Below, piece by piece: positions 15,873 to 46,400 of a stretch of 64,000 nt of DNA (position 1 is the stretch's first letter; every line of letters starts with the position of its first letter). The notes beneath the pieces were generated by a model that made no database searches, had not been told where the DNA came from, and saw only the letters and a list, made by a program, of their open reading frames with translations. This DNA is from a virus (taxonomy: Duplodnaviria; Heunggongvirae; Uroviricota; Caudoviricetes): IMG/VR virus record IMGVR_UViG_3300010049_000010, positions 749 to 64,748 of that record. One strand, written 5' to 3'. A program made the position numbers and the translations under genes.

Positions 15873-16658
15873 ATGTTTCAAGAATTTAAAAATGATCCTT
15901 TAGATATGCAAAAAAGGCAACAAATTAGTTTCTCAGATGAATTTGTTTTTCGCAAAGCTAGAATTTATAAATGCATGGGTCCTGAAGATGATAGACTTCA
16001 AGTGCAAGTATTGCCTGAATTACAAGGTATAGATGAAGAAGAAATGGATGACATGCCAATTTATCCATCATTTTATAAAGGCACTGTTATTGTTGGAAAA
16101 GATTATGTAACACATGGTGATTCAGCTGAATTTGTTTGGGTTATTTGCACTGCTGATTTACAAGTTGGATATATTTTAGGTAAATCTAACATATTTGGAA
16201 AAATGAATGAACCTTATGCAGGTAGTTATTCTTATAAAGATATAAGAGATTATATAGCTCAAAGACAAGCATTACCAGCTGATTTTGATTACAAGCATCT
16301 TATGGTGACTCAGTGGACATCAACTGATCAGGGTGGGATGTTTCAATGTTATAATTACATGACAGGTGATTGGTTCTTATTAAACACCTCAGGTTCAATT
16401 ATTACAGTTCAACAACAAATGATTTATATGAGAGTTGGCACCCCACCTGACCCGCCAGAATCAGGGCCTGCTGCATTTAGCGCAATAACGATTACATCAG
16501 ATATTTTAACGTTAAAATCTCCTAACATAGTTCTTGACGGACAAGAAGTTTCCCTCGGTAGTCACGGATTAAAATTAGCTGCGATGTTAGGATCAATACC
16601 GGCAACTACTGGAAACGGTGGTGGAATGGTATTCCCAATAAGCAATATTTCTACTTAA
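15873..16658 (+). CDS. Baseplate spike protein (gp5/gpV OB-fold-like)
   Basis: DDRLQVQVLPEL...VWVI...GYILG fits the gp5 OB-fold pattern, followed by short beta repeats; lies immediately after the hub-like gene. Confidence 0.5.
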   Translation: MFQEFKNDPLDMQKRQQISFSDEFVFRKARIYKCMGPEDDRLQVQVLPELQGIDEEEMDDMPIYPSFYKGTVIVGKDYVTHGDSAEFVWVICTADLQVGYILGKSNIFGKMNEPYAGSYSYKDIRDYIAQRQALPADFDYKHLMVTQWTSTDQGGMFQCYNYMTGDWFLLNTSGSIITVQQQMIYMRVGTPPDPPESGPAAFSAITITSDILTLKSPNIVLDGQEVSLGSHGLKLAAMLGSIPATTGNGGGMVFPISNIST

Positions 16659-19600
16659 GAATTATATAAATCGCTATTTAACTCTTTATTTAAAGCAGGT
16701 ATATTATCTAAACCAATTCCTGGGGTTGGTGCTTCTTGTTTATTTGTAATTGGGTAGATAGTGTGAGCCATTGGACCTAATAGTGAAACCATTGAATCAG
16801 TTGGAGGTTCAAACTCTGGTGATTCACGTTCTTCGATTCTTTTAATTTTTAATTTCTTTTTATATCCTTCTGCTCTAGGCCAAATTGATTGTGGTATTTC
16901 TACTGTCCAAAAATCTGCTCCTTGTTCTACTAAACATACAAGTTCTTCTGGAGCTAATTGTGCTTTACTATATTCTAAAAGATTTGAAGTATTCACATTA
17001 CCAAAAACATCCCATCTAATTGGCGTTTGTCCTATGTTATCTCCCCATTCAATATTTAATTTTAATGTGTCAAAATCTTTAATTGGACGCGCTCTCTTAT
17101 CTGTATTTAATCTATTCCAAGTGATATTTTTTTCATTCTCAGTATATTCTTGAGAAAATAATTGATATAATCCATCCTCTGGTTTATGAGCATATTTAGC
17201 TTTAAATTTTTGTCGACCTTTTTTACCTTTAACTTTTTTCATTATTTTTACATAGTTATTACCATTAGGATTTTCAGTCTTATATTTTGTATAAACATCT
17301 TCATTTACCCATTTTATTTTTATATAAAGTTTATTTATTCTATCATCTTCAAGACCTGCATTAGTTAAAACAGCATGTCTTTTAGCTTCAGTAGAATTTT
17401 GTAATTCAAAAAATGCTACTCTATAAATTGGATTTTTATTAAATAATTTTAATATATCAGGAGCTCTTCCATCTCCTACAGATTCATTACAAACCATATC
17501 CATAATAGATTCGAGACATCTCATTATCCACATAGTGCCGTCTTCTTTATTAAATCGCTTTGCTACAAAGAAAAATCTATAATTATATAATATGTTAAGA
17601 TATGCAAATAAAAATTCATCAATTATACTAACTTTTGTTGTTTCTTTAGTTAAGTTTATCAAATTAAATATTTCTTTAACATCATTATAACTCCATTCAT
17701 CTACATCTTTATAGCAATAACTAATAAGACCTAAAGTTTCAACATCTTGTCCATTTACTTTTTTAACTGAATCTTCTAATATGCTATTTAATATGCTTAT
17801 TTTAGATTTAATTGCTTCTAATATTTCATTTTTTGTGCGGTCTAAATCATCTTGTAAACCAAATAAATCTACAGCACATTCGGTCCAATAATTATATAAG
17901 ACATGCTCATAATCAACTGCGATAAATTCGCCAGTATCTTCCATTCCATTAGCTTTAATAACAGCTTTATCAACGCATTCAAATAATGCATAATGCAAAG
18001 TATTAAAATCTATTCTCTTTACTAAATCTCTTAAAAACTCAAAAGATGATATTTGGCCAGCAATAATAGATACTAAGTTTCTAATTGGATAATCTAAACT
18101 TATAAATGTTGCTTGAAATTGTTGAGGTGAATAAAACTTAGCTCTTAAATAAAGATTCATTATAGAATTTTTTAATTCAGGACTCATATCATGTCTCGTA
18201 TATTGAGCATTTGTTAAATTACTGATTACATCTAAATCTCTATTTAAAGATGATGGAATAATACTTTTAGTTTGAAATGGAAGATTCCTAATTGGGATAT
18301 CTTCACAAGTTTCATTTCCCATTAATAATTGTAAATAATATTTATAATCTGTTGTTTTAGCATATTCACCATCATATGTAACATCACCCCAACTATCTTG
18401 AGGCATACCAATTGGATGAGATTTATCTTCTACTCGTGGATAAACTCCCTGTAATGTAGATAATAAACCAACCCCTCTAATTAATCTATTTCCTAAACCA
18501 GACCAAGTTACACCGATATTTGCTTCTTGATTACTTCTAAGAGGTGCAGTTATAGTCGCTGCAAATTGTGCGTTAGCATTTTGTGGAGAATTAGGTACTA
18601 CCCCGTCTCCCTGAGGACCCCATCCACCACTTCCTAATCCAGTTAACTTTGTAAAAATGTCAGCAGCGCTACTCGCTACTTTAGCTAAGAAAGATTGTTC
18701 ATGCGTTATTATTTCTCCTGCATATTCTGTTTCATCCCAAAAAGAAGGCTCTTTAAATTTTTGAATAATGTGGTCACAATATAAAGAAGATTTTCTCGTT
18801 TCAGTCATATCTTGAATATGAAGTGGAACATGTAAACCTGTTTTAGTTTTATTGGTAAGAATTTCTTCATCTAAACCATCTTCAAAAAAATCAACATTAG
18901 ATAAGTCTACATTTATAAATGGAATATCAAAATATTCAATTGATTGTAAAGTTCTAACAGGACCTAATAATAATCGTTCTTTATATTCCCATCTTTCTAT
19001 AACATCTTGATAATTTAATACTTCACATTCAGCTCTGAAAATACTATGAGGTCCGCCGCCGCTTGAGTTTCCTTCACAAAAAATCATTGATACTCTTTTT
19101 TTATTCGTATTTTTATCATGATCAAGATTTATATCATAATCAAGAATATATTTCATAAATTCATGTTCTTTTTCAGGATCTTCAAAATGTAATACGAAAT
19201 GATACATTCCAATTTTATCTCTAAATCTTTGAGCTATTCCATATCCCTCTTCTTTCATTAATGTTGAATTTGCCCAATTATGAAATGCTTCAGTTTCATC
19301 TGCACTATACATCGTATGTAAAGTAATTCTCCAAGCTGCATCGGGCATATCATGGAAAATGTGATTATTGTAAGGGTCAACTGCTCTATACATATAAGTT
19401 CCCCATCTAACAGGCATTGGAACTCTAGTAACATAAACCATATTTCCATTTTCATCAGGTTCATATTCTGATGTATGCGTTACATTAAGATATGAGGTGT
19501 ATTCATACCACCAATCTGAATCAGTCCAAGGACTTTCTGTTCTGTTAATTACGCGATCAACCATTTTTACTTCACCAGAATAAGTTATTGGAAGTCTTTG

Positions 19601-22600
19601 AACTGTATGGGTTGGAAAATGATAATTATATTTTTTAGGTTCTCTAGGTTTTATTGGTTCAGGAAACTCTTGTCCATTTAAACTATAAGGATTATATTTA
19701 TCATCATATAAAGTGCCTGATCTTAAAACTGAAGAAAGTTTTTGACTTGTTCCATGAACTACCGCACCACCGATTATAAGTGGCCAAATAAATGGGAGTA
19801 TTGGCAATAAAGAACCTAATACAATAGGACCGCAGATAGCAATAATAGCTGTTTGAATAATCCAATCAGTATCTCCCCAAAGATTTTTCATTCTGTTTTT
19901 AATTTTCTTTTCTGCATCCGCAATAGTTTTAAATATTCTTGCGATAGTACTAAAAGTATTTTTAAAAAATAAATATTTTTGGCGCCGTTGTGCATCACTA
20001 TAGTATTGTGCCATTCGAGCTTCGTAAGTTCTTTCTTCTTCTTCAAAAGATGTATTAAATGCTACTGAGCCTTCTATAAAATCAGATTGTTCTTTTTGTC
20101 CTGCATTATATCCAATAAAGAAACTATTGATTCCCTGAGTTAAAACTTTTAAGTTAGAATTAAACGAATTACCAATAGTTACTTTTTGTTTTGATTCATC
20201 TAATGTTGTAAAACTTAATTCATAACAATTATCTACATTAGAAAATTCGTCTTCTACATTCGATGATGTAAAAAATATCGCATTTTCTTCAGTATTTGAT
20301 TCATTCCCAGAAAGTCTTGGAATATTTCTTAAAAAGATATTTTCTCTTTCAAAATAACCTTGGATAGTATTTGGACTATAATTTGCTCCATGAGGTCCTC
20401 CAAATAATGCCGGAGCAAATCTATTTATTCCAGGAAATTTAGTTGCCATAGATGCGTCATTATTAAACTCATCTGCAAGCATTGCTTCCGCGGCGGACTG
20501 ACCTGGGTCTCCAATTACATCTAAATCTGTATTATTTAAAGTTTCATTAGCTTTATTTTTTCTTTCTTTTTTATCTTCTTTTCTTTGTTTTTTTGCGCAT
20601 TCTTCTGATCCATCCCCACTATCATCTTGTAATGCGTCCTGAATCGCGTGTCTTCCAGGTAATCCATCACCCCAACCTGCTGCAGCTGGCTGGCCAAAAT
20701 ATCCACCATTTGCCAACATTTCTTCTTTAGCTAAAGCAAGAAAATCATCCATACCAAGATTGTGTTCAGCAGCTGCTCCATGTTCACAACCAGCTGTTTC
20801 TCTAATCATCGAGTGAAATGTAATATCATAGTTTGTTAAATAATCTCCGCTCGTAGTATAAAATGCTTGATAATATTTTAAATTGAAATTAGGATGATGT
20901 CCTAATATTGTACCTAAATGATCTTGTTGTCGAATTATATCTAATAAATTATCTTTATATTCATATGGAAATGCAGCGTGTACAGTGTCATAAATATCCA
21001 TATATCTAATTATAAATGGTTGATCTCCCCAACTAACAGCATTAGAATTAATTGATTCACCACTCTCAGCGTCAGATATAATAAACTTACGCATATTCCA
21101 GTCTCTACCTTGTATTTGCGGAGTCCACCAAGTTGACATTGGATGGTCAGAAGGCCGCCAAAGTTTTTCATTGTCAAAAAATAATTTTGAAACAGCTGAC
21201 CCTGCGACATTGAAACATAGTGCTTTACTATTAAAATAATTTTTTTCTGAAGATATTGGATTATCATCTCTAACACGGTGGTTTAAATATACTTTTTTAA
21301 CGTGTCCTGCTGGGGTATAAGAAAATAGATGCTCTTGCATATATAAACTTAAATCCCATTCTGTAAGATATGTGCTTACAATTCCAGTGCATCCTTCAGT
21401 TACCCATTGTAGAAATTGTATATAATCGTTAATTGCTTTAAAACCAGGTCCTCTATAAGTAAAACCTTCTTTTCGAAGCATAAATGTATCGAGATTAAAA
21501 GATGCATCAGGTTTTTGTTCATAAATATCTTTCATTATAGAAGTGGGTGTGCCCACAGTACTATCTATTCCGATTTTATAAGGCGGAAAAAATAATGAAG
21601 AATAATATTCTTTCTTTTCAATTATTACATCGTTAGGGTTATCTATTAAATCATAGGAAATTGGATAAACTTGAATTATATTTCTGTCTTTACATTCATG
21701 TTTATCATTTATTAGGCCTAATTCAGAAGTTCTTAAAACTTTAATATATATTCTATATCCTTCTAATTCAGATTCATTTTTAATTTCTCCGTTTGTTAAA
21801 TCACTTAAAGAAATCATTAACCATCTAGTATCGCAAGGCACAAAATTATATAATAAAGCATAACTCTCATAAGTTCTTACATACTCAATATAATTATTGC
21901 GTTTCTCCTCTATAATTGCAGTTTTTTCATTAAAATCTTTGAAAAAATCAAATTCCTCATCTTCACTTTCAGGTTCAATATAATATGAATCAAATATATT
22001 TAAAAGTGTTATTTTTCCTTCCATATATTCTTCAAAATTAAGTTTCATAGAGTTTTCTAAAACGTTAGGTTTTCTTGAATAAAATTCATCTAAAACATCA
22101 AAAGAAAGATTTGTCTCTAATTTTTTTGCATTTATATTATTAGTTTTTTCTCTATCGTATTTATTTTTAGAAATTGTTTTGATAAATTTTTTATCTTTAT
22201 TTTTTATTAAAATAATTTTTAGATCTAAATCAACATTATTTTTTCTCGTTTCTCCGAAAATATAAAGATAATTATCATTTTTAGGCACTATAAATCCCAT
22301 TGTTGGATCTTTATCATAAATTAAATTTTTTCTAACAGTAACTTCATAAGAGCCATCATCATCTAATTCAAATAATTTTGTTTCTAATTCTCCTATAGAA
22401 GCTGGATAAAATCTAATAAAAGTATCTTGAGTTCCTTTATTAGCATGACCCCAAAATTTTCTAAGAGTTTCATCATATTTTACTTCTTTAATATAATTAT
22501 AATCAACAAATGAAATTTTATTACTGATTATAGAATCATAATTTAAATTTAAAATATTTATATATTTATCTCTATTTCTTATTTTTTTAAGATCATTATA

Positions 22601-23809
22601 ATAAGATTCTTCTTCATCTATAACGAAAAAATTTTCAACATCAATATCAGTTTCAATTTTTTCAAAATTTTCTAATTTTTCATCATTAATAAAAATATAC
22701 CACCAGTCGCGTGCTTCTTGTTGTTGTTTTTTTGAAATACTATGTTGTTCAGCTTCAGATATATTTAATGAAACGTGATATAAAATATCTGTTTCTGCAC
22801 CGCCTAAATATGTTTGAGAAGTTGATGGAAGACGTTCATAATCAGAACCAACATAAGCTGTTGAATAATGTGTTCTTACTTTAACTTTCTTTCCATAAAT
22901 TTTTATTTCAATATCATTTTTACTATTTATTACTATAAAATTAGATAATATATCTATATGCTCATCATCAATAATAATTTCTTCTTGATGTTCTTTTATA
23001 TCTAATAATAAAAATTCAAACTCTGATGCTGGAATAGTAATTTTACGTACAATTGTTGATTCTTCTATTTCATCAATTTTTAATGCCGCGCGTGGATCTG
23101 AAAAAGGTTCAATTATTTCTAAGTTTTCTTTCGTTTTTACATTAATTTTAATTGGAGTAATTTCAATTTTATTTTCTATAATAGTTTCAATTATTTCTTC
23201 ATTTATTATAATTTCTTTATATAAATTATCAGCATAATTTAATTCTATTATATCAGGTTTATCTATTTTTAAATTTATATTTCCATTATTAAATATTTTT
23301 TTAATATAAGGCAAAGCAAAACTTGTTCTAGTAAACATTTGTCCATTTTTAATCGTTCCCATTTCATCAGGAGTTGCATTATCCATAACTACGCCAGTAG
23401 TCGGACCTAATCTCCATTCTGAATCGGACATTTTTGGTGACATATATGCGTCAAAATACATTTGAAGAAATTTCTTTTTAGACTCATTCATCATTTGACG
23501 TAAGAGTTCTATCGCCTCATTGCCTAAATCAGGAGTTGAAGTAATATCACCTGTTAAACTATCAAATTCTTCTGAATTATGCAGCGTTTCAGATATTATT
23601 CTATCTTGTGATTCAATTTTTTTAGATTCTAATATATTAAAAAATGATAAATTTTTTCTTTCTCTTACCTCTTTAGTAGTGAGATATTTTTGAAGTAAAT
23701 TATAATTAGTGTTAACGTTAAATCTTTCAAACATAGTCGCAAAATTGCTAACATCTGTATAAGATTTCATCCGAATAAAATTTTCTGTATTAAATTTTCT
23801 TAAATCCAT
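16655..23809 (-). CDS. Giant 2384-aa protein of unknown function, probably virion-associated
   Basis: Uninterrupted ORF with one long hydrophobic stretch (IIQTAIIAICGPIVLGSLLPILPFIWPLIIGGAVV); no family recognised. Confidence 0.6.
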   Translation of the reverse strand: MDLRKFNTENFIRMKSYTDVSNFATMFERFNVNTNYNLLQKYLTTKEVRERKNLSFFNILESKKIESQDRIISETLHNSEEFDSLTGDITSTPDLGNEAIELLRQMMNESKKKFLQMYFDAYMSPKMSDSEWRLGPTTGVVMDNATPDEMGTIKNGQMFTRTSFALPYIKKIFNNGNINLKIDKPDIIELNYADNLYKEIIINEEIIETIIENKIEITPIKINVKTKENLEIIEPFSDPRAALKIDEIEESTIVRKITIPASEFEFLLLDIKEHQEEIIIDDEHIDILSNFIVINSKNDIEIKIYGKKVKVRTHYSTAYVGSDYERLPSTSQTYLGGAETDILYHVSLNISEAEQHSISKKQQQEARDWWYIFINDEKLENFEKIETDIDVENFFVIDEEESYYNDLKKIRNRDKYINILNLNYDSIISNKISFVDYNYIKEVKYDETLRKFWGHANKGTQDTFIRFYPASIGELETKLFELDDDGSYEVTVRKNLIYDKDPTMGFIVPKNDNYLYIFGETRKNNVDLDLKIILIKNKDKKFIKTISKNKYDREKTNNINAKKLETNLSFDVLDEFYSRKPNVLENSMKLNFEEYMEGKITLLNIFDSYYIEPESEDEEFDFFKDFNEKTAIIEEKRNNYIEYVRTYESYALLYNFVPCDTRWLMISLSDLTNGEIKNESELEGYRIYIKVLRTSELGLINDKHECKDRNIIQVYPISYDLIDNPNDVIIEKKEYYSSLFFPPYKIGIDSTVGTPTSIMKDIYEQKPDASFNLDTFMLRKEGFTYRGPGFKAINDYIQFLQWVTEGCTGIVSTYLTEWDLSLYMQEHLFSYTPAGHVKKVYLNHRVRDDNPISSEKNYFNSKALCFNVAGSAVSKLFFDNEKLWRPSDHPMSTWWTPQIQGRDWNMRKFIISDAESGESINSNAVSWGDQPFIIRYMDIYDTVHAAFPYEYKDNLLDIIRQQDHLGTILGHHPNFNLKYYQAFYTTSGDYLTNYDITFHSMIRETAGCEHGAAAEHNLGMDDFLALAKEEMLANGGYFGQPAAAGWGDGLPGRHAIQDALQDDSGDGSEECAKKQRKEDKKERKNKANETLNNTDLDVIGDPGQSAAEAMLADEFNNDASMATKFPGINRFAPALFGGPHGANYSPNTIQGYFERENIFLRNIPRLSGNESNTEENAIFFTSSNVEDEFSNVDNCYELSFTTLDESKQKVTIGNSFNSNLKVLTQGINSFFIGYNAGQKEQSDFIEGSVAFNTSFEEEERTYEARMAQYYSDAQRRQKYLFFKNTFSTIARIFKTIADAEKKIKNRMKNLWGDTDWIIQTAIIAICGPIVLGSLLPILPFIWPLIIGGAVVHGTSQKLSSVLRSGTLYDDKYNPYSLNGQEFPEPIKPREPKKYNYHFPTHTVQRLPITYSGEVKMVDRVINRTESPWTDSDWWYEYTSYLNVTHTSEYEPDENGNMVYVTRVPMPVRWGTYMYRAVDPYNNHIFHDMPDAAWRITLHTMYSADETEAFHNWANSTLMKEEGYGIAQRFRDKIGMYHFVLHFEDPEKEHEFMKYILDYDINLDHDKNTNKKRVSMIFCEGNSSGGGPHSIFRAECEVLNYQDVIERWEYKERLLLGPVRTLQSIEYFDIPFINVDLSNVDFFEDGLDEEILTNKTKTGLHVPLHIQDMTETRKSSLYCDHIIQKFKEPSFWDETEYAGEIITHEQSFLAKVASSAADIFTKLTGLGSGGWGPQGDGVVPNSPQNANAQFAATITAPLRSNQEANIGVTWSGLGNRLIRGVGLLSTLQGVYPRVEDKSHPIGMPQDSWGDVTYDGEYAKTTDYKYYLQLLMGNETCEDIPIRNLPFQTKSIIPSSLNRDLDVISNLTNAQYTRHDMSPELKNSIMNLYLRAKFYSPQQFQATFISLDYPIRNLVSIIAGQISSFEFLRDLVKRIDFNTLHYALFECVDKAVIKANGMEDTGEFIAVDYEHVLYNYWTECAVDLFGLQDDLDRTKNEILEAIKSKISILNSILEDSVKKVNGQDVETLGLISYCYKDVDEWSYNDVKEIFNLINLTKETTKVSIIDEFLFAYLNILYNYRFFFVAKRFNKEDGTMWIMRCLESIMDMVCNESVGDGRAPDILKLFNKNPIYRVAFFELQNSTEAKRHAVLTNAGLEDDRINKLYIKIKWVNEDVYTKYKTENPNGNNYVKIMKKVKGKKGRQKFKAKYAHKPEDGLYQLFSQEYTENEKNITWNRLNTDKRARPIKDFDTLKLNIEWGDNIGQTPIRWDVFGNVNTSNLLEYSKAQLAPEELVCLVEQGADFWTVEIPQSIWPRAEGYKKKLKIKRIEERESPEFEPPTDSMVSLLGPMAHTIYPITNKQEAPTPGIGLDNIPALNKELNSDLYNS

Positions 23810-23818
23810 TTTTAATCC

Positions 23819-25273
23819 TTAATCATTCACCATAAATGTTAATCCAGCAAATTGAGGACTATCAATCTCACCAGTGGCTGCTGATTTTGTAAGCATCGCT
23901 GCTCCTTCTTTGATTCCTTCCCATGCATCCATTACAGACCTAAGAGAATCAGTAAATATTGATTTAGCTTGAGAATACATTTCTAATGCAGCCCCTGCTT
24001 CAGGTGTATTTATAGCTCCTTTTAATATATCAATTCCCATCTGTTTCATTTGTCCGGGAATATCAGCAATATCATCTAAGAAATCATTTTTAATATTAGC
24101 CCAAGCTTCTTTTTTTGCGTTTGCTTCTTCCATTAATGCTTTAAGTGGACCCAATAAATCTAAATCAAGTTTATCTTTTAACATATTTACTGCTGATGGA
24201 TTAAATGCGCTCATAATGGAACTGAATGCTGATAATGCTTGTCTAATTTGAGCAATAATACTCATAGTTTGATCACATATACAATCCATATTTAAAAGAT
24301 TCCAAATATATTGAATAAGCATTGTAAGGAGCATTACAACAATTGCTACTACTATTTGAATAATTTTTTGAATTATAACTCCTACACTCGGAGGATTAAT
24401 CCACACGGATATTGCTAATTGAATTATTTCTATAATTGGAATTATAATTGATAAAACTAAATCTAAAATCATTTTTAATATTTTAATTATTCTAACAAGA
24501 ATAAGAATAATCTTTAACCATTTTATTTCTCTGTCAGCACAACTTTCAACATCATCGTCATCATCTCCTTCACCTCCAGTAGCTGATTCATCTTCCTCAC
24601 AAACACATGGATCCTCACCACATCTATCACAAGGTATAGCACCACAAGTGCAATCAGGCACTAATTTATCACAAACAGAACATCGAGGACAAGTGCATTC
24701 TTCAATTGATCTTTCACATTCAGGACAAAATTCACAAATACATGGGGCTTCACCACAAATTTCACAATACGTTTCATCATCGACATCATCAATATCTTCA
24801 AAATCTTCAGCGTCATCAAATTTAAATCTAATAAGAATTTCCTCACAATTTAGTTGTGGTGGTTCATCTAATAAATTTAATAATCGAGAAGCTGGAAAAG
24901 TTCCAATTTTTAATTCAAGTCCGGGCCCTAGTGGAAGTGGTTCTGTATTCATCGCTAATGTTGGAAATAAAACAGTGTTTCCAAATCCACCAGTTTGGGC
25001 AATTAATTTTTGTTTTGGAAATGGAATTCCGATTGGAAGAGATTCTCCACCTAAAGCCCTTCTTATTACTTCTTCTGGTTCTTCTTTTGGGGATATTTTT
25101 TTTCTAATTATATCATCAGTGACTTCTTGAAGTCTAGCAACTAATCTATCTAATTGGTCATAACTTATTTCACGTTTTGGATTAAGATTGGTGCTGTCTT
25201 CTGAGCCATAACTAAAGTCTTTATGATCATAACTATCATAAACTCGCTTAATCGTTAGATTAGTTTCTTCCAT
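23819..25273 (-). CDS. Membrane-associated protein with a 16-Cys repeat module
   Basis: Four CxxC-x(4-6)-CxC units, acidic flanks, then about 90 aa of Ile/Leu-rich helices; preceded by ACTAACTA-TT-ATG. Confidence 0.65.
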   Translation of the reverse strand: MEETNLTIKRVYDSYDHKDFSYGSEDSTNLNPKREISYDQLDRLVARLQEVTDDIIRKKISPKEEPEEVIRRALGGESLPIGIPFPKQKLIAQTGGFGNTVLFPTLAMNTEPLPLGPGLELKIGTFPASRLLNLLDEPPQLNCEEILIRFKFDDAEDFEDIDDVDDETYCEICGEAPCICEFCPECERSIEECTCPRCSVCDKLVPDCTCGAIPCDRCGEDPCVCEEDESATGGEGDDDDDVESCADREIKWLKIILILVRIIKILKMILDLVLSIIIPIIEIIQLAISVWINPPSVGVIIQKIIQIVVAIVVMLLTMLIQYIWNLLNMDCICDQTMSIIAQIRQALSAFSSIMSAFNPSAVNMLKDKLDLDLLGPLKALMEEANAKKEAWANIKNDFLDDIADIPGQMKQMGIDILKGAINTPEAGAALEMYSQAKSIFTDSLRSVMDAWEGIKEGAAMLTKSAATGEIDSPQFAGLTFMVND

Positions 25274-25294
25274 AATAGTTAGTTTTAAACAGAA

Positions 25295-25489
25295 TTAGTT
25301 ATTTTCTGAGAGATTATACTCCAACCTTTGAACAAATTCTTCTTGTTTGCCGTCGTTAAAGTTTTCTACAGGCCTGTAATAACCAGATACTCTAGTATAA
25401 ACTTCGGCAGTACCCTCACAAAGATGTGGATTATTTAACTTATCTTGTATTTCTTTTATTTGATTATCAATTTTTTCAATTTTAGACAT
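25295..25489 (-). CDS. nrdD: Separate glycyl-radical (C-terminal) module of class III RNR
   Basis: EVYTRVSGYYRPVENFNDGKQEEF is the NrdD Gly-radical loop; own GGAGGAG SD inside the upstream gene. Confidence 0.85.
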   Translation of the reverse strand: MSKIEKIDNQIKEIQDKLNNPHLCEGTAEVYTRVSGYYRPVENFNDGKQEEFVQRLEYNLSENN

Positions 25490-27323
25490 TTTCTCCTCCT
25501 ATTCCAAATCCTTCCATTACATGACATTGTGGTTCATTAACTAAATTTAATAATTCATTTTTCTTTGATTCTAAATCACGTAATTTAGTAGTATATCCTT
25601 CGATAGCTTCTTCTTTGCAATACGGGCATATTCCCCTCGTATTTCCCTTAATAAAACCATGTATTTGACAATGGCTAAAAGTAGGCGTTATAGTAAGATA
25701 TGGAAATTTTGTATTATACATTACTTTTTTAACGAACTCTTTAGTTTTTCTCCAATCATCTAATCCGTCGCCGATATAAGTATGAAATGTTGTTCCGCCT
25801 GTATAAAGCGTTTGTAAATCTTGTTGATGCATAATTGCATCCCAAGGATTATCAGAAAAATTTACAGGAAGATTAGACGAATTAGTATAATAAGGCCGCA
25901 TCATTGAGCCCGCGGTAATAATATTTGGATATTTTAACTTATCATGTTTTGCTAATCTGTATGAACAAGATTCAGCAGGACTTGATTCTAAATTATAGAG
26001 ATGTCCAGTTTCTTCCTGAAAATCTGAACATTTTTTTCGCATAAAATTTAATACGTCTATCGCTAATTGTTTTCCTTCTTTTGTAGAAATATCCCAATCT
26101 TTCTTTTTAGTATTACGGAAATAATTTCGGCAAAGCTCGTTCATACCAACTAAACCAATTGTGCTGAAATGATTTTCATATTTAGCTTTAAGATATCTTT
26201 TAGTATAAGGATATAATCCCCTGTCAAATAAATCATCTAATCTCACACGTTTCTGTTCAAGAGATTTTTTAGCGATTATCATTATAGTTTCAATACGTTC
26301 GAATAATTCTTCTTTTGTATGAGATAGAAATCCAACTTTTGGTAAATTAAGAGTAACGACGCCGACTGACCCAGTATTATCTCCGCTTCCAAATAATGAG
26401 CCATTTTTTCTTGTAAGTTCTCTTAAATCTAATCTTAACCTACAACACATAGATCTAGCATCTTCTGGTTTCATATCACTATTTACATAATTACTAAAAT
26501 AAAAAGAACCAAATTTTCCAGTAAGTCTATAAATGCGTTCTTCAACTTCTGGGTCTAAATGTTCAAAAAATGCGGGTGTGCAATTTAATGTTGGAATTGG
26601 ATATTGAAAAGTGTTTCCGGAAAAATCACCTGATTCAAAAACGTCAAAAAACGCCTTGTTAAATAAATTCATTTCATTTTGTAAATCACCATATTTAAAA
26701 GACATTTTTTTCCCGCCAATATTTGGATGTTTGTCTTTTAAATCTTCGGGCACTGTTAAATCTAAAGTGACATTACTAAACGGCGCCTGGCTCCCCCATC
26801 GAGAAGGAGTATTAATGCTAAAACAGAAAAATTGCATGCACTGTTTTACTTCTTCATAAGTCATATTATCTTTGCGTACGAATGGGGCGAGATAAGTATC
26901 AAAACCATTTAAGGCCTGAGCGCCATTCCATTCATTTTGAAGTATGCCCAAAAAGTTTACAAGTTGTTGAACAGCAGTATTAAGATGTTTAGGAGGTCCA
27001 CTATTTACTTTCCCCCTTACTCCGCCTAAACCTTCTTCCAAGACTGTCGCAATAGACCACCCAGCACAATAAGCTGCAACAATCTGTAAATCGTGAATAT
27101 GAAAATCACAACTCTTGTGCGCGTTTCTAACATCACTTGAATAAACTTTATTCAACCAATAATTAGCTGAAACAGTTCCGATTTGATGGAGCATTAATCC
27201 ACCAATACAATAACTTGACGTGCTATTTTCTTTAGTTCGCCAATCCGCCTTATCTAAATAAGAATCCGTAACTTTGATAGGATCTATAGTCACAGGACTA
27301 TAATCGTTTCCATTATCTGCCAT
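25482..27323 (-). CDS. nrdD: Anaerobic (class III) ribonucleoside-triphosphate reductase, catalytic part
   Basis: HIHDL, YCAGWS, SMCCRL, TGSVGVVTLNL, YNLESSPAES, YTGGT and CxxH...CPYC are present. The RVxGY loop and an ATP-cone are absent. Confidence 0.92.
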   Translation of the reverse strand: MADNGNDYSPVTIDPIKVTDSYLDKADWRTKENSTSSYCIGGLMLHQIGTVSANYWLNKVYSSDVRNAHKSCDFHIHDLQIVAAYCAGWSIATVLEEGLGGVRGKVNSGPPKHLNTAVQQLVNFLGILQNEWNGAQALNGFDTYLAPFVRKDNMTYEEVKQCMQFFCFSINTPSRWGSQAPFSNVTLDLTVPEDLKDKHPNIGGKKMSFKYGDLQNEMNLFNKAFFDVFESGDFSGNTFQYPIPTLNCTPAFFEHLDPEVEERIYRLTGKFGSFYFSNYVNSDMKPEDARSMCCRLRLDLRELTRKNGSLFGSGDNTGSVGVVTLNLPKVGFLSHTKEELFERIETIMIIAKKSLEQKRVRLDDLFDRGLYPYTKRYLKAKYENHFSTIGLVGMNELCRNYFRNTKKKDWDISTKEGKQLAIDVLNFMRKKCSDFQEETGHLYNLESSPAESCSYRLAKHDKLKYPNIITAGSMMRPYYTNSSNLPVNFSDNPWDAIMHQQDLQTLYTGGTTFHTYIGDGLDDWRKTKEFVKKVMYNTKFPYLTITPTFSHCQIHGFIKGNTRGICPYCKEEAIEGYTTKLRDLESKKNELLNLVNEPQCHVMEGFGIGGENV

Positions 27324-27356
27324 TCATTTTCCTTCTAAAATTAGTTAGTCGATCTT

Positions 27357-28496
27357 CTAAAATTTGTCATGAGCCCTGTTTACTTTTATGAAAGTTGTAC
27401 ATTTTCCAAAATGTTTTATTTCAGACGCTCCAATATAAGTTCCACAGCTTCTCAATCCACCTAATATATCATTTATCACGTTTTGTACTGGTCCAATATA
27501 TGGCACTTCATATTCAGCTCCTTCACTAGTTCTATATTCATTCATTCCGTTAAAATGTTTTTCTTGAGCAGTTTTACTTGACATTCCATACCAAGTTTTG
27601 TATTTTTTTTCAATAATATTTTCTTTAAATCCATAATGAATATCATTTCCGGGTAATCTGATTTTTTCATAGGTTCCATCATGTTCATATTTCGTAATTA
27701 TCTCGCCCTCACATTCATCTGTTCCCGCTAACATTCCACCAATCATAACAAAATCAGAATTAGCTCCAAATGCTTTTGCAATATCTGCTGGAGATCTCAT
27801 TCCACCGTCTAAACAAATAAATGCGTTAAGTCCATGCGCAACATCAGCGCATTCAATCGCTGCGCTAATTTGTGGATAGCCAACACCAGTTTTTAATCTT
27901 GTTGTGCATGCTGACCCAGGACCAATTCCAATTTTAATAATATCTGCGCCTGCAATAATTAACTCTTGAGTCATTTCTGGAGTGCATACATTGCCCGCCA
28001 TTATTAAATTTTTTGGATATCTATTTCTAATTTTTCTAATATGGTCTGCGAATGATTGCGAATAACCATTAGCAATATCTACACATATTTTCACATTATC
28101 AAATTCATCTTCATCTATTTTAGATAAACAAGCTAATTCATTGCGAAAATAATGAAGTCTGTCTAAATCTATTTCTTTATTACCAACTGTATAAAAACTG
28201 TTTTTAAGAAGTTTTAACAAATAATCTTTCTGTGATCTATTTTTTGCTATTTCCATCCATTGTTCATGATAATGTTTGGCGATTGCGACCAACATATTAT
28301 TCGCTGCGAATCGAGCTGACATCGCAAAATTACCACAAGTCATATTACTTGCGATAATTGGAATGCATTCAAATTCATATTCATGTTTAGTTTTAAATTT
28401 TCTTTCAAGTTTCACTTCTTTACGGGAAGACAATGTAGATCTCTTTGGTTGAATAAGCACATCAACCATGTCAAGTTTAGTTTCTCTGATTATCAT
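27357..28496 (-). CDS. guaC: GMP reductase
   Basis: KIGIGPGSACTTRLKTGVGYPQISA, DIANGYS, MAGNVCT, DGG, WYGMSS and GLRSCGTYIGA. Confidence 0.92.
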   Translation of the reverse strand: MIIRETKLDMVDVLIQPKRSTLSSRKEVKLERKFKTKHEYEFECIPIIASNMTCGNFAMSARFAANNMLVAIAKHYHEQWMEIAKNRSQKDYLLKLLKNSFYTVGNKEIDLDRLHYFRNELACLSKIDEDEFDNVKICVDIANGYSQSFADHIRKIRNRYPKNLIMAGNVCTPEMTQELIIAGADIIKIGIGPGSACTTRLKTGVGYPQISAAIECADVAHGLNAFICLDGGMRSPADIAKAFGANSDFVMIGGMLAGTDECEGEIITKYEHDGTYEKIRLPGNDIHYGFKENIIEKKYKTWYGMSSKTAQEKHFNGMNEYRTSEGAEYEVPYIGPVQNVINDILGGLRSCGTYIGASEIKHFGKCTTFIKVNRAHDKF

Positions 28497-39075: not shown

Positions 39076-40408
39076 AATTATTTAGTATCTGATTTGAGAA
39101 CGTCTTTCCTACCAAATTAGACATTAAAGTTTTGCCTAATACTGGTTCTCCTGTAGTTTTTATAATAAGTTTATAAGTATTTTTTACAAAGTTTTTAGAT
39201 GTTACTGAAAGCGCGCACTCATATGTAGATCCTGGATATAGATCTTTTATTTCAAATTGATTAGTGTCTAAAGAACTTATCTTATCCCTTACAATTCCCG
39301 GAACATAAATAACGATACTTTCAAAATTATTTTCATATTGTTGTAATACTTTCCAACCAATAGTGATAGTGTTATCAGTAGTAAGTTCATCTATTTGACG
39401 ATATTCTTCTAAGATACAATCAGGTTCTTCTTCAAAATAACCTTCAACTACATCTGAGATAGTTTCTTCAATAACGTCTTTAGTAAATCTTCCATCATTT
39501 TTCAGATGTTCAGATATTATAATCTCTTCTCCATTTATCTGTATTGGAGCTCTAACTTGAGGTTTCTGTGTAATATTTTGTGGAAGATGAATTTCAGCCC
39601 CTTCTCCATCTGGTGGATTAAAATTATATCCAGAAAATATTGGATTAGGACCAAACTTATTATCTCCCCAAATAAGAGAAGTTTTGTGCGTAAATACTAC
39701 TTCATTATTTTTATTATAACCATAAAGTCCACTAAATCTTACAGGTAATTCTAATCCATCATCTATTTGTTCTATAAGTGTTTGATATGACCTAATAGTG
39801 AATTCACACTTAATTGGAAATATTTTAGATTTTTCTAGCCAATCTTTTTCATTATATTCTACATTACTATCAAAAGAATCTAAAGTGATAAAAACTGGAA
39901 TATCAATTGGATGCCCGCATAAATCATGTTCAACTATAAAATATAATGGGAATTTTGGCTGAGATTCCCAATAGAGTAGTTGACTAGCAATATTTACATC
40001 ATCCCTTCTAGCAAAGAAAACTGTCGCGTTATATTTTATTTTTACAGCTGCAGCTTTAAGAATTAATCCAGTATCTGGGTTCATTTGGCCTAAAACTATT
40101 TGTCCCGCTTGTTGAGTCGCACCTCTATCATCAGCTTCATAAGTTCCAGTTTGAGAATATGCGGCAAATGGTAAACCTAAATTTATGTAATTATAATCTT
40201 GATTTTTAATATCTCCTTGACCAACAGTTTCTACTCGTCTTCTAAAAGCGATGTCTTCTTTTGAATAAACTACTCTGTTTAAATCACCATTAAATAATAA
40301 TTGAGAAAGATAAAATTCCATTCCAAATTTACACATTAAATTTGTATCAATGAAATTATTATTTCTAAGAGATTGATAATATGAGTTTACTTTTACTTCT
40401 TGTGCCAT
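39059..40408 (-). CDS. Tail terminator/completion protein (gp15-like) with C-terminal FN3 domain
   Basis: DIPVFITLDSFDSNVEY...IKCEFTIRSY resembles gp15; NTITIGWK...IKDLYPGSTYECALSV is FN3-like. Confidence 0.55.
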   Translation of the reverse strand: MAQEVKVNSYYQSLRNNNFIDTNLMCKFGMEFYLSQLLFNGDLNRVVYSKEDIAFRRRVETVGQGDIKNQDYNYINLGLPFAAYSQTGTYEADDRGATQQAGQIVLGQMNPDTGLILKAAAVKIKYNATVFFARRDDVNIASQLLYWESQPKFPLYFIVEHDLCGHPIDIPVFITLDSFDSNVEYNEKDWLEKSKIFPIKCEFTIRSYQTLIEQIDDGLELPVRFSGLYGYNKNNEVVFTHKTSLIWGDNKFGPNPIFSGYNFNPPDGEGAEIHLPQNITQKPQVRAPIQINGEEIIISEHLKNDGRFTKDVIEETISDVVEGYFEEEPDCILEEYRQIDELTTDNTITIGWKVLQQYENNFESIVIYVPGIVRDKISSLDTNQFEIKDLYPGSTYECALSVTSKNFVKNTYKLIIKTTGEPVLGKTLMSNLVGKTFSNQILNNYGRSE

Positions 40409-43400
40409 TATGCTATTTCCTCTAATAATAATGAATAACTTATATGATTTAAATTACTTCTATATTGGGCTATTGGGTGAGTTAAATAAGCTACCAATTC
40501 TCCCCTTCTATTAAATAATCCCATCTCAGTAATATCTACAACTCCATATTCTCTATCTCGTTTGTCTAATACATTTTCTTTAGTGTTTAAATAAAATGAT
40601 AAATTTATCTTATTCTGTAATTCTATTTTTGAAGACCAAATATCTCCATATTCTCCGCTTATACCATAAAATGAATTGAGATACTTAATACCATACAAGA
40701 ATTTATATTTATCGTATTGATAATCATCTGGAGGACCATTTACTATAAAGTTTATTATTCCCTCAGTATGATCTATAATTTCAATACTAGATTTTTGAAT
40801 TAGTTTATTTTCTATAAAATTATATTCATATTGTATTGAATTATCTATATCAGATAAATAAGAATTAGTAACAGGCATTTGAATAAAATTATCGCCTTGT
40901 TTTGTTGGCACTGTTAAACTTAAAGATGTGATAAAATCTTTAAATTTTTCATCATAATTATCTTTTATATTGATATTAATGACGAATGGATTTATTTCTT
41001 TTCCTTCAATATAATATTCTGATTTGAACCAATCAATAGTAGTTTTATAAAGAGGCTCTAATAAATTAAGTCTAGGATCAGTAGTTCCATAAATTTCATT
41101 TCGACAATCCCCATATTCATTTCCAACAGGAGACCATTGAATTTGCCCATTTTGAACCCACGGTTTAATAAATATACCATTTTCATCACTTAAGAAAATT
41201 TTAAATCCATCTTTATTAGTCCAGTTATTATTTAAATACATTGGTAATGAATTATTATTATAAATTACATTTCGTATAGTAACAGGCGGAGGTGGATATA
41301 TTTCTGTATTTATAAAAATTCTATCAAATCCAAATAATTTTGTTTCTAAATAACTTACTTCTTGAACATAATCAGGATTATTTAAGTATTTAATTTGAGG
41401 ATAAATAGTATTAAGAGGTAATAATTTCATTCTAATAAAATGGTTTTCACCATCATTTAATTTATCTTCTTTTTCTCCAATTAAATTAAATAAATTGAAA
41501 CGAGAAAAATCATTAGCGATATAGGAAATTTCATTTATATCTTTTCCTTTATATTCTCCTAATATTATTCTTTCTTTAAATTCTATAATACTTCCTTTAA
41601 CATCAGTTAATTCTTTAAAATTTTCAAAAGTAGGTTTATTAAATAAAACATTTCCAAAAAGACCATCAATTAAAATTGGAGTTGTATGAGTTAAGATTTC
41701 TTTCAATTCATTTGGTATTCTTGTAAAAATATATTTTCCTGTCGTAAAATAATCTATTTCAAAAGGAATCGCAGTAACTACATTTAATTTTTTAATAATA
41801 GTATTTCCATTCATTATTACTGACATCATATTATCATTCATAATCATATATTTTTGTCCAGTATATAATTGATCTTTAGAATAAACTTCATATCTTATAG
41901 AATTTCCAATTATCCAATCTTTATTAGTTAAAATTTCTAATTCGTAATTTCTAATATCAAGATTAAAGTTTTCATTATTATTAGTAATTCTAAGATTTCT
42001 TAATGATTGTTCATAATTAATCATTGGAATTGATATAGTTAAATCTTCTGGAATGCCATAACTGTCAACTCTAATAGAATCACTAAAACTTATTAAAGAG
42101 AAATCAATTGAAGAAAGAACTATGTTTCTGCTTATTGTTCTACCATCAAATTTGATATTTGCTATATTATTTCCAAAGAATTCTTCTCTATTAAAATCAA
42201 TAACATCAATATCAACTATTTTTCCGATTTCTTTTAAATAACTAACATCTAACTCATGGGTAGTTAATTTATTATTTTCATCTGTTACGTGAATAAATAA
42301 TTTATTATTTTCAATAGAAGGAATATTAAAATCTTTGCAGTTAAATAAAACTTGTTGATTTTCTATATCATATTCGAATCCTTCAATACTATTATCTAAG
42401 AAATCCATAAATTCTATATTATAAAAATCCCTAATTTTTGTTGAACTTATAGAAATACCAGCTTTACTTAATCTCATTAAAGTAAGCATAATTTTATCTT
42501 CATTAAGTTGGTCTCTTGTTATATCTCGATATAAATAAACAGTTTTCTTTGGAGTATATATATTTAATGGAGCTGATTCTAATTTATAAAGATTATATTC
42601 TACGAAATTATTTTTTTCATATTCTTCTTCAGTTTTATAAAATTTAATTTTATTTTCTTTTTTAATTAAATTTCCATAATCAAATTTCGTGTCTTCATGT
42701 GGGTTAAGCCAAAATAATCCATTTTTGGAATTCATTTTATTACCATACTTATCTGTTAAATAAACATATTCATCAAATCTATTTTTCACTAATTTTCTTT
42801 TAAATGCATGATGGTCTATGTGTTCTGGTCTTTCTAATACGAAATTTTTATTTAAAAGCGAGCCACCATATCCTTTTGGTTTAATATAAATACCATTTAT
42901 TTCTAATCCTTCTTCAACAGGTAATATTATATCTTCAAAGAAATTAAAATTTTCATTATAAAATGAAGTTTGTTCACTATTAAACTCATAAGGCATAGAT
43001 ATATTAAGATAAAAATTAATGTTTCCTTTTATAAATAAAGTTGAATTAGAAGTGTCTAATACATAATATTTATTATTATATAAATAAGGAGCAAATCTCA
43101 TACTTAAATTTTTCTTATAATACGGACCAAACGGACCATCTTTCCGCTCAATATCACTTACTAAGTCAATAAAAGATTGATTAATTTTAATAGGATTTAA
43201 TTCTTTTCTTCTAATTCTATAAGGATTTAATTGAGGATCATCAGTATCTCTGTCCATTTGTGATGCAGTAATAATTTGGTTATCTTCAGTTGGCCATTCA
43301 TATAAAAGATTATTATCTATTAAGAAATTAATTACTTTAGAAATATCATTATTAACATCTATTTGTAAATCTGGATTATTTCTATTAAAGTTTAAATTAT

Positions 43401-46400
43401 GAATTTGTTTAACATCAATTTCAGCCATTAATATTTGGAAATCATCTTGATTTTCTTCTGGTTTATAATCACTTTTTAATAATGGAGCTCTTAATAATGT
43501 TCTATAATCTATATTTTCTGTAATTAGGTCCTTCATCGTAAAATTAGTATCTTGATGATACCAAGGATCTAACATTCTCATATAGTCACCTTTTATATCA
43601 CAAAGATAAATTGGTTGATTTTCATAATTTAAGGATTCTCTGTAATTATGAACTTCTTCATTATTTGCATCTACAAAAGTATCATACTCATATGTATATC
43701 TATTAGTATCTTCAGAAATTGCAGGGATTCCGCGTTTATCTTCTAATCTTAATTCAGGCGTTAAATTTTCTCTTGGAGAATATAATCTATTAGCAAACTT
43801 AGGATCATCTACTTTAATAAATGATCTTACTAAAAAATCTCCATTTGAATCTAAATATTCATTTTTGAATTCTAAAAATCTTGTTGGATTTTCAATTAAA
43901 TTAGAAGATTCAATAGATACTAAAACGTGAACAAATTCAGAACTATTAGCTGGTGTAACTGAGGAAACATATTCAATTATATCATCTCCAACTTTAGTAA
44001 TTCTCGTTCCTCGTTCAATATTAAAATTAAATGGAAGTTCTAAACAGAATTTTTTACTATAGCTTATTTCTAAATTATCTGAATTAAGATATCCATTGCA
44101 TAATACACCATTGTAATTTTCTAATCTAAAATTTTTCCAAGTAGCTTTTAAATCACCAAGTTTTACATTAGACATATTTTTAAGTTGTCCGTCATTAATT
44201 ATGCTATCACCAACTAACATAAGAGTCATAAAACCTAAATCACTAGATCCATTATTAGTACCGCTCTTAAACATTATTCTTATTTCATTGCCAGTTCTAT
44301 ATATAGAATCAGCAAAGATATTTAATGACCCGATTGCATTTAATGAAGGTATAGCTCCAGTTGTTGGTATGTTTACTTCATAAAAAGTTTTTCCTTCGTT
44401 ATCACTAAAGAAAACTACTGGATATTTATTTGAAACAATTCTTGTACCATCACTTGGTAAGAAATTAATTAAAGTTTCTCTTTCAATTCTTCCATCTTCA
44501 GTATCATTTAATCTATTACATTCACTTATTGGAGCTGAAATATAACCTGAGTATATTTGGAAATTATCATTTATGTATTTTCCCATTATAGTAAAATATT
44601 TTGCTACATTTCCAGAAGGATAAACGCCAAAAGGTCTATATTGATTTCCAAAACCAACTGTTTGAGTTTTAATATTTGTAGAAGTTAATCCGTAAACATA
44701 ATTAGTTCCTAAGTTTGTAATATTCCAATTATTATAATTTTCAATATTATCTCTTGATGTCGCTTTTTCTAATGGAAATGTTATTATATCATCTTTATTA
44801 GTTTGAATAATTAATTGCGTATTTGTTAACGTTACATCTTTTATAGTATCATGATTAAAGAAATAATCAACACGTTCTCCTGAACATATAGCTGAGTAAT
44901 AATCCATTAAATATCTGATATAATTTTGTTTTACCATATATTTAGAAACAGTATATCCTAATTCATAAAAAGTTTCTTGAGGACTTGACCATTTTGTTAT
45001 TGCAGCAGTTCTAAAATTAGGAATTTTTCCATTTTCTGTATGATGGAATTCAATTCCATTTAAAGTTATTTCTCTAGGAATATTATCTTCTACAGGGAAC
45101 TCCAAAACATCATTTGCTGTTATCCAAGCCTTAATTGTTTGAGCATCTCCAGATCTATTTCCTAAATATTTCAAGTAAATATCTCTTTGTAATTTTACAA
45201 ACCTATATGCTTGGCTTAAATTTAATTCATCAAATAATTTATAAGTAACATTTATACTTGATGGTAGTCTTGCTCGTTTCCAGTGATAATTATCTGTTAA
45301 TCCATTAGGCAATAAAGCTCTTTCTCTTCCGTCAGTAGTTGGATTTTTTAAGTCCTTTGATATATAACAATTTGTTTTAGTATAAAAGAAAATATCTCTT
45401 CCACTTATAATTACTTGATTATTAAGTGAATTATATGCGGTCCATTTTTTAGCTCTATTCTCATTGTCATTTCCAGTTAATATTTGATACGGTCCTTCTG
45501 TATAAAATTGTGGGACATTTGTAATCGTATTTGTTGTTCCATATTCAGGTATATTATGCGTTAAAATTCTTTTTGGATCTTTAACAGAGAAATCATAAAT
45601 ATGATAACAATTAGGTGTGGCTTGGGCTATATTTATTTCAAATCTAGCACTTGTCACCCCAGGCGCGAGTACAATTGCCGCGATATTTATATTTTGAGAT
45701 ATTTCTGCTCGAGGTAATTTCCATAAAAATTGTCCAGCAATAAGACTATTATAAATATCAGTATGACTATCTTTTGAAAATCTACCAAAATTATGTCCAA
45801 CAACATAAGTTGTTACTTTCGTTTCTTCTAAATTTGTATTATTAGTAATAAAGTTTGTTGATAATATTGGATTTTCTGATACTATCCATCTTTGAAGACT
45901 ATGATTATATATCCAAACTTGATGAACTTGGTCTGTTCCATTAGTTGACAATCTGTTTAATATACCAAAAGAAATTGAAGTTTCTTGTGTTGTCGCAACT
46001 TTTTTGAATGAAAAATCAATTACTTTATAATTATCTAAACCTATTCCTGTTATATTAAAATCTCTTCTAACGGAAATATTATTAGTTCCATTTCCAGTCC
46101 CACTTATAATAAAGCTTTGTTTTTGCGGTCCTGCATCTCTGTCATGGGGTGTCTGAGATCCAGTTCCAGACCACGTAATAGCTTGAGCCGGCTCAACATA
46201 ACTTATCTCGCTAAAAGCGACGTCTCTTGTTATTACATTTTTATAATTTTTTATTAAGTTATCATGTCTTTCATCACCAACATAATTATCTCTAATTTGT
46301 ATAGATTCATAAGTATTTAAGTCTCCACCTTCGAATGGCGCAGCATATATTCTTTCAAGTTTATAATCACTTGCATCTATAGGATCTATTCTCACTGAGA

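Follow-up and report, generated by a model that had tools for sequence, protein, structure and literature searches.

Class III ribonucleotide reductase (RNR) has long been studied as a single chain, NrdD; its radical domain has to swing outwards to be activated, and O2 destroys it. The present analysis concerns a phage nrdD locus in which this chain is encoded in two pieces, a large piece of 613 amino acids (aa), called the body below, and a 64-aa peptide carrying the glycyl-radical loop; the locus lies in a stretch of 64,000 nucleotides (nt), the window, which comprises positions 749 to 64,748 of the IMG/VR record IMGVR_UViG_3300010049_000010 (Caudoviricetes). The one-chain NrdD that works with NrdG (Thermotoga maritima, 4COI/4U3E; NF006126) and the phage pieces have the same barrel, the finger-loop motif C-C-R-L, the Zn ribbon C-x2-H...C-x2-C and the hairpin R-V-x-G-Y-Y-R-P, and the chemistry is presumably the same. 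Unlike the one-chain enzyme, the phage chain has its break after the Zn ribbon and before the hairpin, helices of about 27 and about 16 residues on separate proteins stand in for the four-residue linker, and both the ATP cone and the C-terminal glutaredoxin-like domain are missing.

Several described systems share some of these features. The nearest precedent for a fragmented RNR joined by its tails is the class Ia enzyme NrdA-a/NrdA-b of Aeromonas phage Aeh1, where the tails at the break point serve as protein-interaction domains and cannot be dispensed with (Crona et al. 2011, PMC3045599). It is likewise a phage RNR catalytic subunit encoded by two genes and furnished with new tails, but it belongs to another RNR class, is broken at another point and owes its split to a resident mobE endonuclease gene; no mobE-type endonuclease gene is found here, the small piece is a cofactor-bearing peptide of 64 residues, and the split is a property of a clade, not of one phage. 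In the split class II enzymes, NrdJa/NrdJb of Pseudomonas aeruginosa (PMC4520616) and the two-chain enzyme of Thermus phage YS40 (nrdJ-a/nrdJ-b), the catalytic chain also comes from two consecutive genes, the second chain containing the C-terminal Zn-finger part; however, the class is different, the small chain carries no protein radical and coiled-coil ends have not been reported. GrcA/YfiD of Escherichia coli is a free-standing glycyl-radical domain that serves as a spare part for pyruvate formate-lyase (PFL) and whose N-terminal segment matters for activation (2026 review); the background on cleavage by O2 and on GrcA/YfiD that was given in an earlier note on this DNA, made from the sequence alone, agrees with that review. 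The phage peptide resembles GrcA in being small and autonomous and in carrying a glycyl-radical domain. At the same time, GrcA is homologous to the PFL tail, whereas the phage peptide shows no match to the Gly_radical family and is not a GrcA member; PFL keeps a radical domain of its own, which is replaced after damage, whereas the phage body has none; and the N-terminus of GrcA is disordered, whereas that of the phage peptide is a heptad helix. Among cultured phages, nrdD is the RNR gene most often 'split', with six cases (Dwivedi et al. 2013, PMC3653736), which comprise introns, inteins and unexplained recent fragmentation, none of them described as a distinct radical peptide that is conserved and has docking helices. 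Full-text literature searches brought up no account of a separate NrdD radical peptide, and the arrangement is a conserved, real and apparently undescribed variant of class III RNR, in which the new element would be the matched heptad helices at the break, as supported by conservation and modelling.

Profile searches clearly indicate that the two pieces divide one NrdD between them. The body matches the Pfam family NRDD over positions 1-536 of 562 with 507 bits (curated cut-off 26) and NCBIfam NF006126 with 854 bits (cut-off 548), and aligns with the T. maritima NrdD 4COI as far as the Zn ribbon. The ATP cone and the glycyl-radical loop are absent from the 613-aa open reading frame (ORF), so that the R-V-x-G-Y motif by which an NrdD is recognised is not found in the same chain, and only the body and the 64-aa ORF jointly contain it. 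The 64-aa ORF matches positions 527-562 of 562 of the same Pfam family with 31.7 bits (cut-off 26.2); only NRDD-type families match it in Pfam and NCBIfam, its homologues are 61-69 aa long with 66-68% identity, and family relatives span 55-90 aa. The earlier note had described the large ORF as ending past the Zn ribbon with a heptad-like tail, and the RVSGYYR loop as lying in a 64-aa ORF with a GGAGGAG of its own and an amphipathic N-terminus; both descriptions hold when the sequence is re-read, the periodicity of the tail being 100 degrees. The finger-loop pair C293-C294 is invariant across 17 split-type large pieces and is the expected thiyl-radical site, assigned by homology, and metal binding by C552, H555, C566 and C569 is predicted from conserved residues. 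As judged from these residues, the catalytic set of finger loop, Zn ribbon and radical hairpin is intact.

The peptide seems to carry, in addition, a degenerate second copy of the Zn knuckle, while the body retains the full C/H/C/C set. The motif P21-H-L-C24 precedes E-G-T-A-E-V-Y-T-R, the fused counterpart being C-P-H-C-G-E-K-T-E-V-Y-S-R, and C24 is separated from R33 by the same nine-residue spacing that follows the last Zn-ribbon cysteine in fused NrdDs. Since some family members have A, G or V at the position of C24, this cysteine is probably not a Zn ligand. The sequence comparison gives a hint that the arrangement arose through a partial duplication or an insertion at the break site.

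The split is conserved well beyond the window. The protein search yielded 18 NrdD bodies without the radical motif, each of which has C-P-x-C followed by a terminal tail whose hydrophobic residues occupy matching positions (18 of 18); fused relatives run C-P-x-C-G-x3-E-V-Y-S-R-I-T-G-Y-Y-R-P instead. Sixteen of the 18 group together in a maximum-likelihood tree as a single clade (Shimodaira-Hasegawa-like approximate likelihood ratio test, SH-aLRT, 99), whose members are all cone-less, share 57-83% identity with the window protein, come from contigs of up to 329 kb and, in all 16 cases, lack the radical loop in the body. The phage clade is separate in the tree from the cellular sequences that were sampled, and the donor lineage that phylogeny had been expected to reveal cannot be named. 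A spirochaete sequence with an ATP cone nests within a fused Thermotogota/Fusobacteriota group, which reflects a second origin of the split or else an effect of long branches. Nucleotide and protein searches of phage collections returned distant NrdD matches only and no close relatives.

The position of the peptide gene varies within the clade. In a complete 329-kb phage with terminal repeats (L003), a 598-aa body is followed by a 95-aa ORF and then by a 61-aa peptide gene with its own Shine-Dalgarno sequence, AAGGAG; in two other relatives the peptide gene lies 22 nt (L103) or 76 nt (L105, 7826-8018, with an in-frame TAG within the helix) downstream of the body, in L104 it is found 3.8 kb downstream, at the contig end, and in L106 (body P0009) it is located 2.5 kb upstream and is split by a group I intron. 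Because this placement varies, the body and the peptide must be separate proteins in the clade.

Some of these loci have peculiarities of their own. The 95-aa ORF of L003 (4684-4971), whose second half looks helical, has no counterpart in the window and matches no family in Pfam, NCBIfam or PHROGs; a DNA alignment of the junction with the 329-kb relative was too AT-rich and diverged to trace its gain or loss. In L105, the in-frame TAG stands in the context ...A-V-E-TAG-K-L-N-D-P-H-L-C..., the stop of the body is also TAG, with a TGA two codons later, and this phage may read TAG as an amino acid. The intron of L106 (3324-3558) is 235 nt long, contains no ORF and matches Rfam RF00028 with 98.7 bits. 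It sits one base past the radical-glycine codon, with boundaries (U before, G at the end) judged by eye; exon 1 ends with ...GGG T and exon 2 starts with AT TAT AGA CCA, and splicing restores R-V-S-G-Y-Y-R-P. Two close relatives of the body, P0015 (1046 aa) and P0023, contain the intein domain PF14890, and these inteins, together with the intron of L106, show mobile elements at work in this gene family.

Both ends created by the break carry a heptad pattern. In the window proteins, the a/d positions are I574, Y577, L581, L584, K588, L591 and V595 in the tail of the body and I4, I7, I11, I14 and L18 in the head of the peptide. Across the 18 tails, the hydrophobic fraction is about 1.0 at positions 4/5, 8, 12, 15 and 22/23 after the last Zn-ribbon cysteine, a conserved lysine pair (K587-K588) being found at and just before the intervening heptad position, and across 23 heads it is about 1.0 at five positions with 3-4-3-4 spacing. 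The Fourier spectra peak at 100 degrees per residue for the tails and at 102 for the heads, which is the coiled-coil value, and the heptad pattern is beyond chance. AlphaFold 2 modelling of the body alone predicted a helix at residues 567-595 with a predicted local distance difference test (pLDDT) score of 83-88, disorder at residues 598-613, and low confidence at 272-282, 298-315, 473-491 and 549-560; the peptide modelled alone contained a helix at residues 3-18 (pLDDT 91-95) and a hairpin (31-34/37-40) with G36 at its tip.

The modelled complex of the body and the peptide obtained ipSAE scores of 0.87-0.88 in three runs, compared with 0.00 for the best of three controls; the runs shared at least 93% of contacts and the pLDDT of the partner was at least 84. 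In this model, residues 569-570, 573-574, 577-578, 580-581, 584-585, 587-588 and 591-592 of the body tail are in contact with peptide residues 3-4, 7-8, 10-11, 14-15 and 17-18. The rest of the peptide (residues 23-61) is placed on the strand 548-552, the Zn ribbon and barrel segments, and the surfaces beneath it largely coincide with the low-confidence regions of the lone body, while the radical hairpin is modelled in the canonical site. Since peptide residues 27-28 contact body residues 564-569, the base of the tail helix, the two helices are inferred to run antiparallel. What is expected of a two-helix coiled-coil tether, a/d heptads on both partners and a predicted contact between them, was found in the sequences and in the model, and the earlier proposal that complementary helices pair the body with the radical module gains support from the periodicity and from the heterodimer prediction.

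It is considered probable, with good confidence, that the two proteins constitute a working two-subunit class III RNR, made up of the body and an obligatory 64-aa radical peptide. Because the body lacks a radical loop, the peptide would be a regular, obligatory subunit and not a spare. The barrel, the Zn ribbon and the finger-loop cysteines would come from the 613-residue body, and the glycyl-radical hairpin from the separately translated peptide. The body helix (about 27 residues) and the peptide helix (about 16 residues) would zip along their heptad stripes into an antiparallel coiled coil projecting from the Zn ribbon, which would take the place of the four-residue covalent linker of fused NrdDs and let the hairpin enter the barrel. 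A radical-S-adenosylmethionine (SAM) activase would then put the radical on G36, from where it would pass to the finger-loop cysteine as in ordinary NrdD. It is a speculation that a separate, tethered radical domain leaves the barrel more easily for activation. The observed gene structure, conservation, selection and periodicity and the modelled docking underlie this proposal, activation and activity being inferred. A candidate for the NrdG-type activase is a 255-aa radical-SAM ORF with the motif C-x3-C-x2-C (C-P-L-S-C-K-Y-C), which is the best NrdG2-like match in the phage and has matches to Pfam Radical_SAM and Fer4_12 as well. Weak matches are also given by larger radical-SAM ORFs (447, 443 and 302 aa).

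Several points weigh against the two-subunit enzyme. The reading as a whole is drawn from sequence analysis and modelling. The docking of the hairpin may reflect the memory of solved one-chain NrdDs, and the pairing of the helices has no solved precedent, amphipathic helices pairing easily in silico. The complex model was fed with author-made alignments, and the calibration of the mark applied to ipSAE, which is reached by 58 of 80 solved complexes and by 2 of 110 mismatched pairs, holds only approximately. The candidate activase scores 72 bits against NrdG2, below the curated cut-off of 131, and its gene lies about 144 kb from nrdD; finally, the source record, a linear virus of 261 kb, is only about 79% complete.

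The split design is probably old, for it occurs across a clade of large phages and, as a sister form, in many spirochaetes. A profile built from four peptides and searched against 1.84 billion representative proteins gave 3032 matches, of which the best 150 are almost all 46-230 aa long and are of three kinds: helix-type peptides resembling that of the window, helix-type peptides with V-x-G-T-x-T-E-V-Y-T, often joined to a glutaredoxin-like domain, and short peptides starting with M-x-C-G-x2-C-E-V-Y-S. The third kind is a large class of 46-90 aa, starting M-x-C-G-x2-C-E-V-Y-S-R, in which the Zn ribbon itself is interrupted, so that the second knuckle is on the same piece as the radical loop; such ORFs were found in many genomes of the spirochaete sample, some in several copies.

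The two-piece NrdDs that the earlier note mentioned for spirochaete genomes do exist. A groundwater Spirochaetes metagenome-assembled genome (MAG) encodes, in the order nrdR, nrdD and peptide, an NrdD of 705 aa with a helical tail and a 175-aa peptide with a glutaredoxin-like end. In a sample of 301 genomes from the phylum of a Spirochaetales MAG, 149 of which had a match, the 150 rows listed contain, by the authors' own tally, 51 helix-type small ORFs (55-235 aa) and 14 fused genes (at least 700 aa), the remainder being short ORFs without the helix. At six of the 12 spirochaete loci examined, the body ends in C-P-x-C-K-x-E-K-E...helix and the peptide gene follows 30-60 nt downstream; of the other six, one is fused and five yielded the peptide ORF alone. 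A scan of genome contigs with the peptide alignment was swamped by the C-termini of fused clostridial NrdDs, and the helix was matched by none of the 80 loci retained. Split NrdDs are more numerous than fused ones in the spirochaete sample, which would make the split a mainstream yet undescribed architecture; in annotation, genes of 50-90 aa often remain uncalled or unnamed, and truncated bodies are labelled as complete NrdD. The same DNA as that of the window is present in two termite-gut metagenome runs, and a spirochaete is a plausible host for this termite-gut phage.

A rival view is that the split mainly serves to make the peptide an exchangeable cartridge: after cleavage by O2 at G36, the damaged peptide would leave and a fresh one would zip on, peptide genes carried by phages servicing host or phage bodies. 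O2 does cleave glycyl-radical enzymes at the glycine that bears the radical, and GrcA/YfiD provides such a rescue for PFL; a non-covalent coiled coil is in principle reversible; and a lone peptide gene, without the large piece, is carried by a 24-kb provirus that is 85% complete, two further phage contigs also having peptide genes alone. Exchange after damage is, nevertheless, only an analogy with GrcA: a body without a radical loop needs the peptide from the start, as a subunit and not as a spare, the phage has a single copy of the peptide gene, and the contigs with lone peptide genes may be fragments or may provide an ordinary extra copy for a split host enzyme. The cartridge is accordingly rated as unlikely, with the lone peptide genes leaving room for it; the same low probability is given to the idea that the heptad helices are an address code by which phages and proviruses with the peptide gene alone plug a cartridge into the split NrdD body of the host. 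Among glycyl-radical enzymes, spare-part proteins are known for formate lyases alone, the question being open for the others (2026 review), and a true cartridge would be the first spare-part system beyond PFL, one traded between viruses and hosts. The split NrdD offers a direct test of whether spare parts exist beyond PFL, and a natural separate radical peptide on a helical clip allows activation, docking and damage to be studied apart. The provirus peptide gene lies between HNH endonuclease and terminase genes, inside a 1.4-Mb bacterial contig, and a neighbouring gene shows a weak match to DUF261.

Far less probable than a cartridge is the production of a single fused protein by programmed frameshifting or read-through at the 8-nt overlap of the two ORFs. 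Besides the overlap itself, a strong Shine-Dalgarno-like GGAGGAG just ahead of the stop would suit such an event, since an element of this type precedes the +1 frameshift site of prfB. However, the frame of the small ORF has a TAG three codons before the ATG, which confines a shift to six codons without a slippery pattern or a codon that allows re-pairing; the third frame has many stops, and neither frame is open across the junction. In the relatives, moreover, what lies between the two genes is a 95-aa ORF, a gap of 22-76 nt with a change of frame, or a distance of kilobases in either direction, and this varied placement excludes a frameshift or read-through fusion as the way in which the clade makes the enzyme. 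The overlap of start and stop suggests translational coupling instead.

An assembly or sequencing artefact, or a decaying pseudogene, is equally improbable, even though the DNA is AT-rich, has a run of A near the junction and was assembled from a metagenome. Logan contigs from the two termite-gut runs, made by a second assembler at about 13x depth, show the same junction, with zero indels and one substitution (25704 A>C) across the region 24900-26100; these contigs are perhaps from the window's own source sample and attest the agreement of assemblers, not independence. The split recurs, however, in 16 related clusters from several samples, the catalytic residues are invariant, and both pieces are under purifying selection: in comparisons of the window with five homologues, the nonsynonymous divergence (pN) is 0.2-0.4 per site and the synonymous divergence (pS) 0.6-1.0 (saturated), giving a pN/pS of about 0.25-0.5, the constraint extending over both the helix and the radical segment. 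The 16-member clade, the varied gene placement and the selection together bear out the view, already expressed in the earlier note, that the split evolved and is not a frameshift error. The least credible alternative, a split intein ligating the pieces by protein trans-splicing, is scarcely conceivable, for although RNR genes are favoured intein sites and PF14890 occurs in two close relatives of the body, no intein family was found at either end in Pfam or NCBIfam, the extra sequence (about 45 + 20 residues of plain heptad helix) is not long enough for an intein fold, C569 is not followed by a nucleophile, and no H-N precedes a C, S or T in the peptide.

The features of the two-piece NrdD and of the related genes are listed below.

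Table. Features of the split nrdD locus and of associated genes (positions in the window unless a contig is named)
Feature	Position	Strand	Basis or remark
nrdD large piece, 613 aa: catalytic barrel, Zn ribbon and helical tail	25482..27323	-	
nrdD small piece, 64 aa: N-terminal helix, putative second-Zn-knuckle relic and glycyl-radical hairpin	25295..25489	-	Pfam NRDD
Finger-loop Cys pair C293-C294, motif M-C-C-R-L	26442..26447	-	Matches C-C-R-L of 4COI
Zn ribbon C552-x2-H555 ... C566-P-Y-C569 (predicted)	25617..25670	-	Four positions invariant in split and fused relatives
Tail helix, residues 570-595 (predicted)	25539..25616	-	AlphaFold 2 helix 567-595; periodicity; model contacts
Body residues 596-613 (last 18), variable, one Cys and one His	25485..25538	-	pLDDT <50
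Shine-Dalgarno GGAGGAG, three bases upstream of the small-ORF ATG	25493..25499	-	Read from the sequence
ATGTCTAA: small-ORF ATG overlapping the large-ORF stop TAA, layout suggesting translational coupling	25482..25489	-	
Head helix, residues 2-19 (predicted)	25433..25486	-	AlphaFold 2 helix 3-18; periodicity; model contacts
P21-H-L-C24, putative second-knuckle relic	25418..25429	-	Sequence comparison
Radical loop R33-V-S-G36-Y-Y-R-P	25370..25393	-	G36 codon 25382-25384; beta-hairpin tip
IMPDH/GMP-reductase-like gene	27357..28496	-	Pfam IMPDH 203 bits; order shared with the 329-kb relative (L003)
Candidate activase	G000:C1:169623-170210, outside the window		
Provirus peptide, 72-84 aa, helix-type	L010:3956-4210 = L119:3001-3219		GCA_000191825.1, contig GL872364.1

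The last 18 residues of the body, which end in G-G-E-N-V-stop, are unconserved among relatives and predicted to be disordered, and the DNA coding for them is also the ribosome-binding region of the small ORF. In several bodies of the split clade, including P0009, P0013, P0014, P0015 and P0016, the helix is followed by a short acidic tail with a Cys-Cys pair; other bodies of the clade end with one cysteine, and that of the window has Q-C-H in this segment. By analogy, the Cys-Cys tails recall the pairs of redox-active cysteines at the C-termini of class I and class II RNRs, and they might be a stand-in for the glutaredoxin-like domain of fused bacterial relatives.

The body and the peptide gene belong to an operon-like row on the minus strand, where the IMPDH/GMP-reductase-like gene is followed by the nrdD body, the 64-aa ORF, a 484-aa ORF and a 2384-aa ORF. 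A scan of positions 23700-28700 found no terminator-like sites and promoter-like sites only at chance level, which is compatible with a single operon, as weak evidence. The succession of the 484-aa and 2384-aa ORFs after the small nrdD piece matches the order in the 329-kb relative. The 484-aa ORF has a Cys-rich acidic middle, a hydrophobic stretch and a faint match to tape-measure proteins. The window contains two giant ORFs, of 4569 aa (40408..54117, minus strand) and 2384 aa (16655..23809, minus strand).

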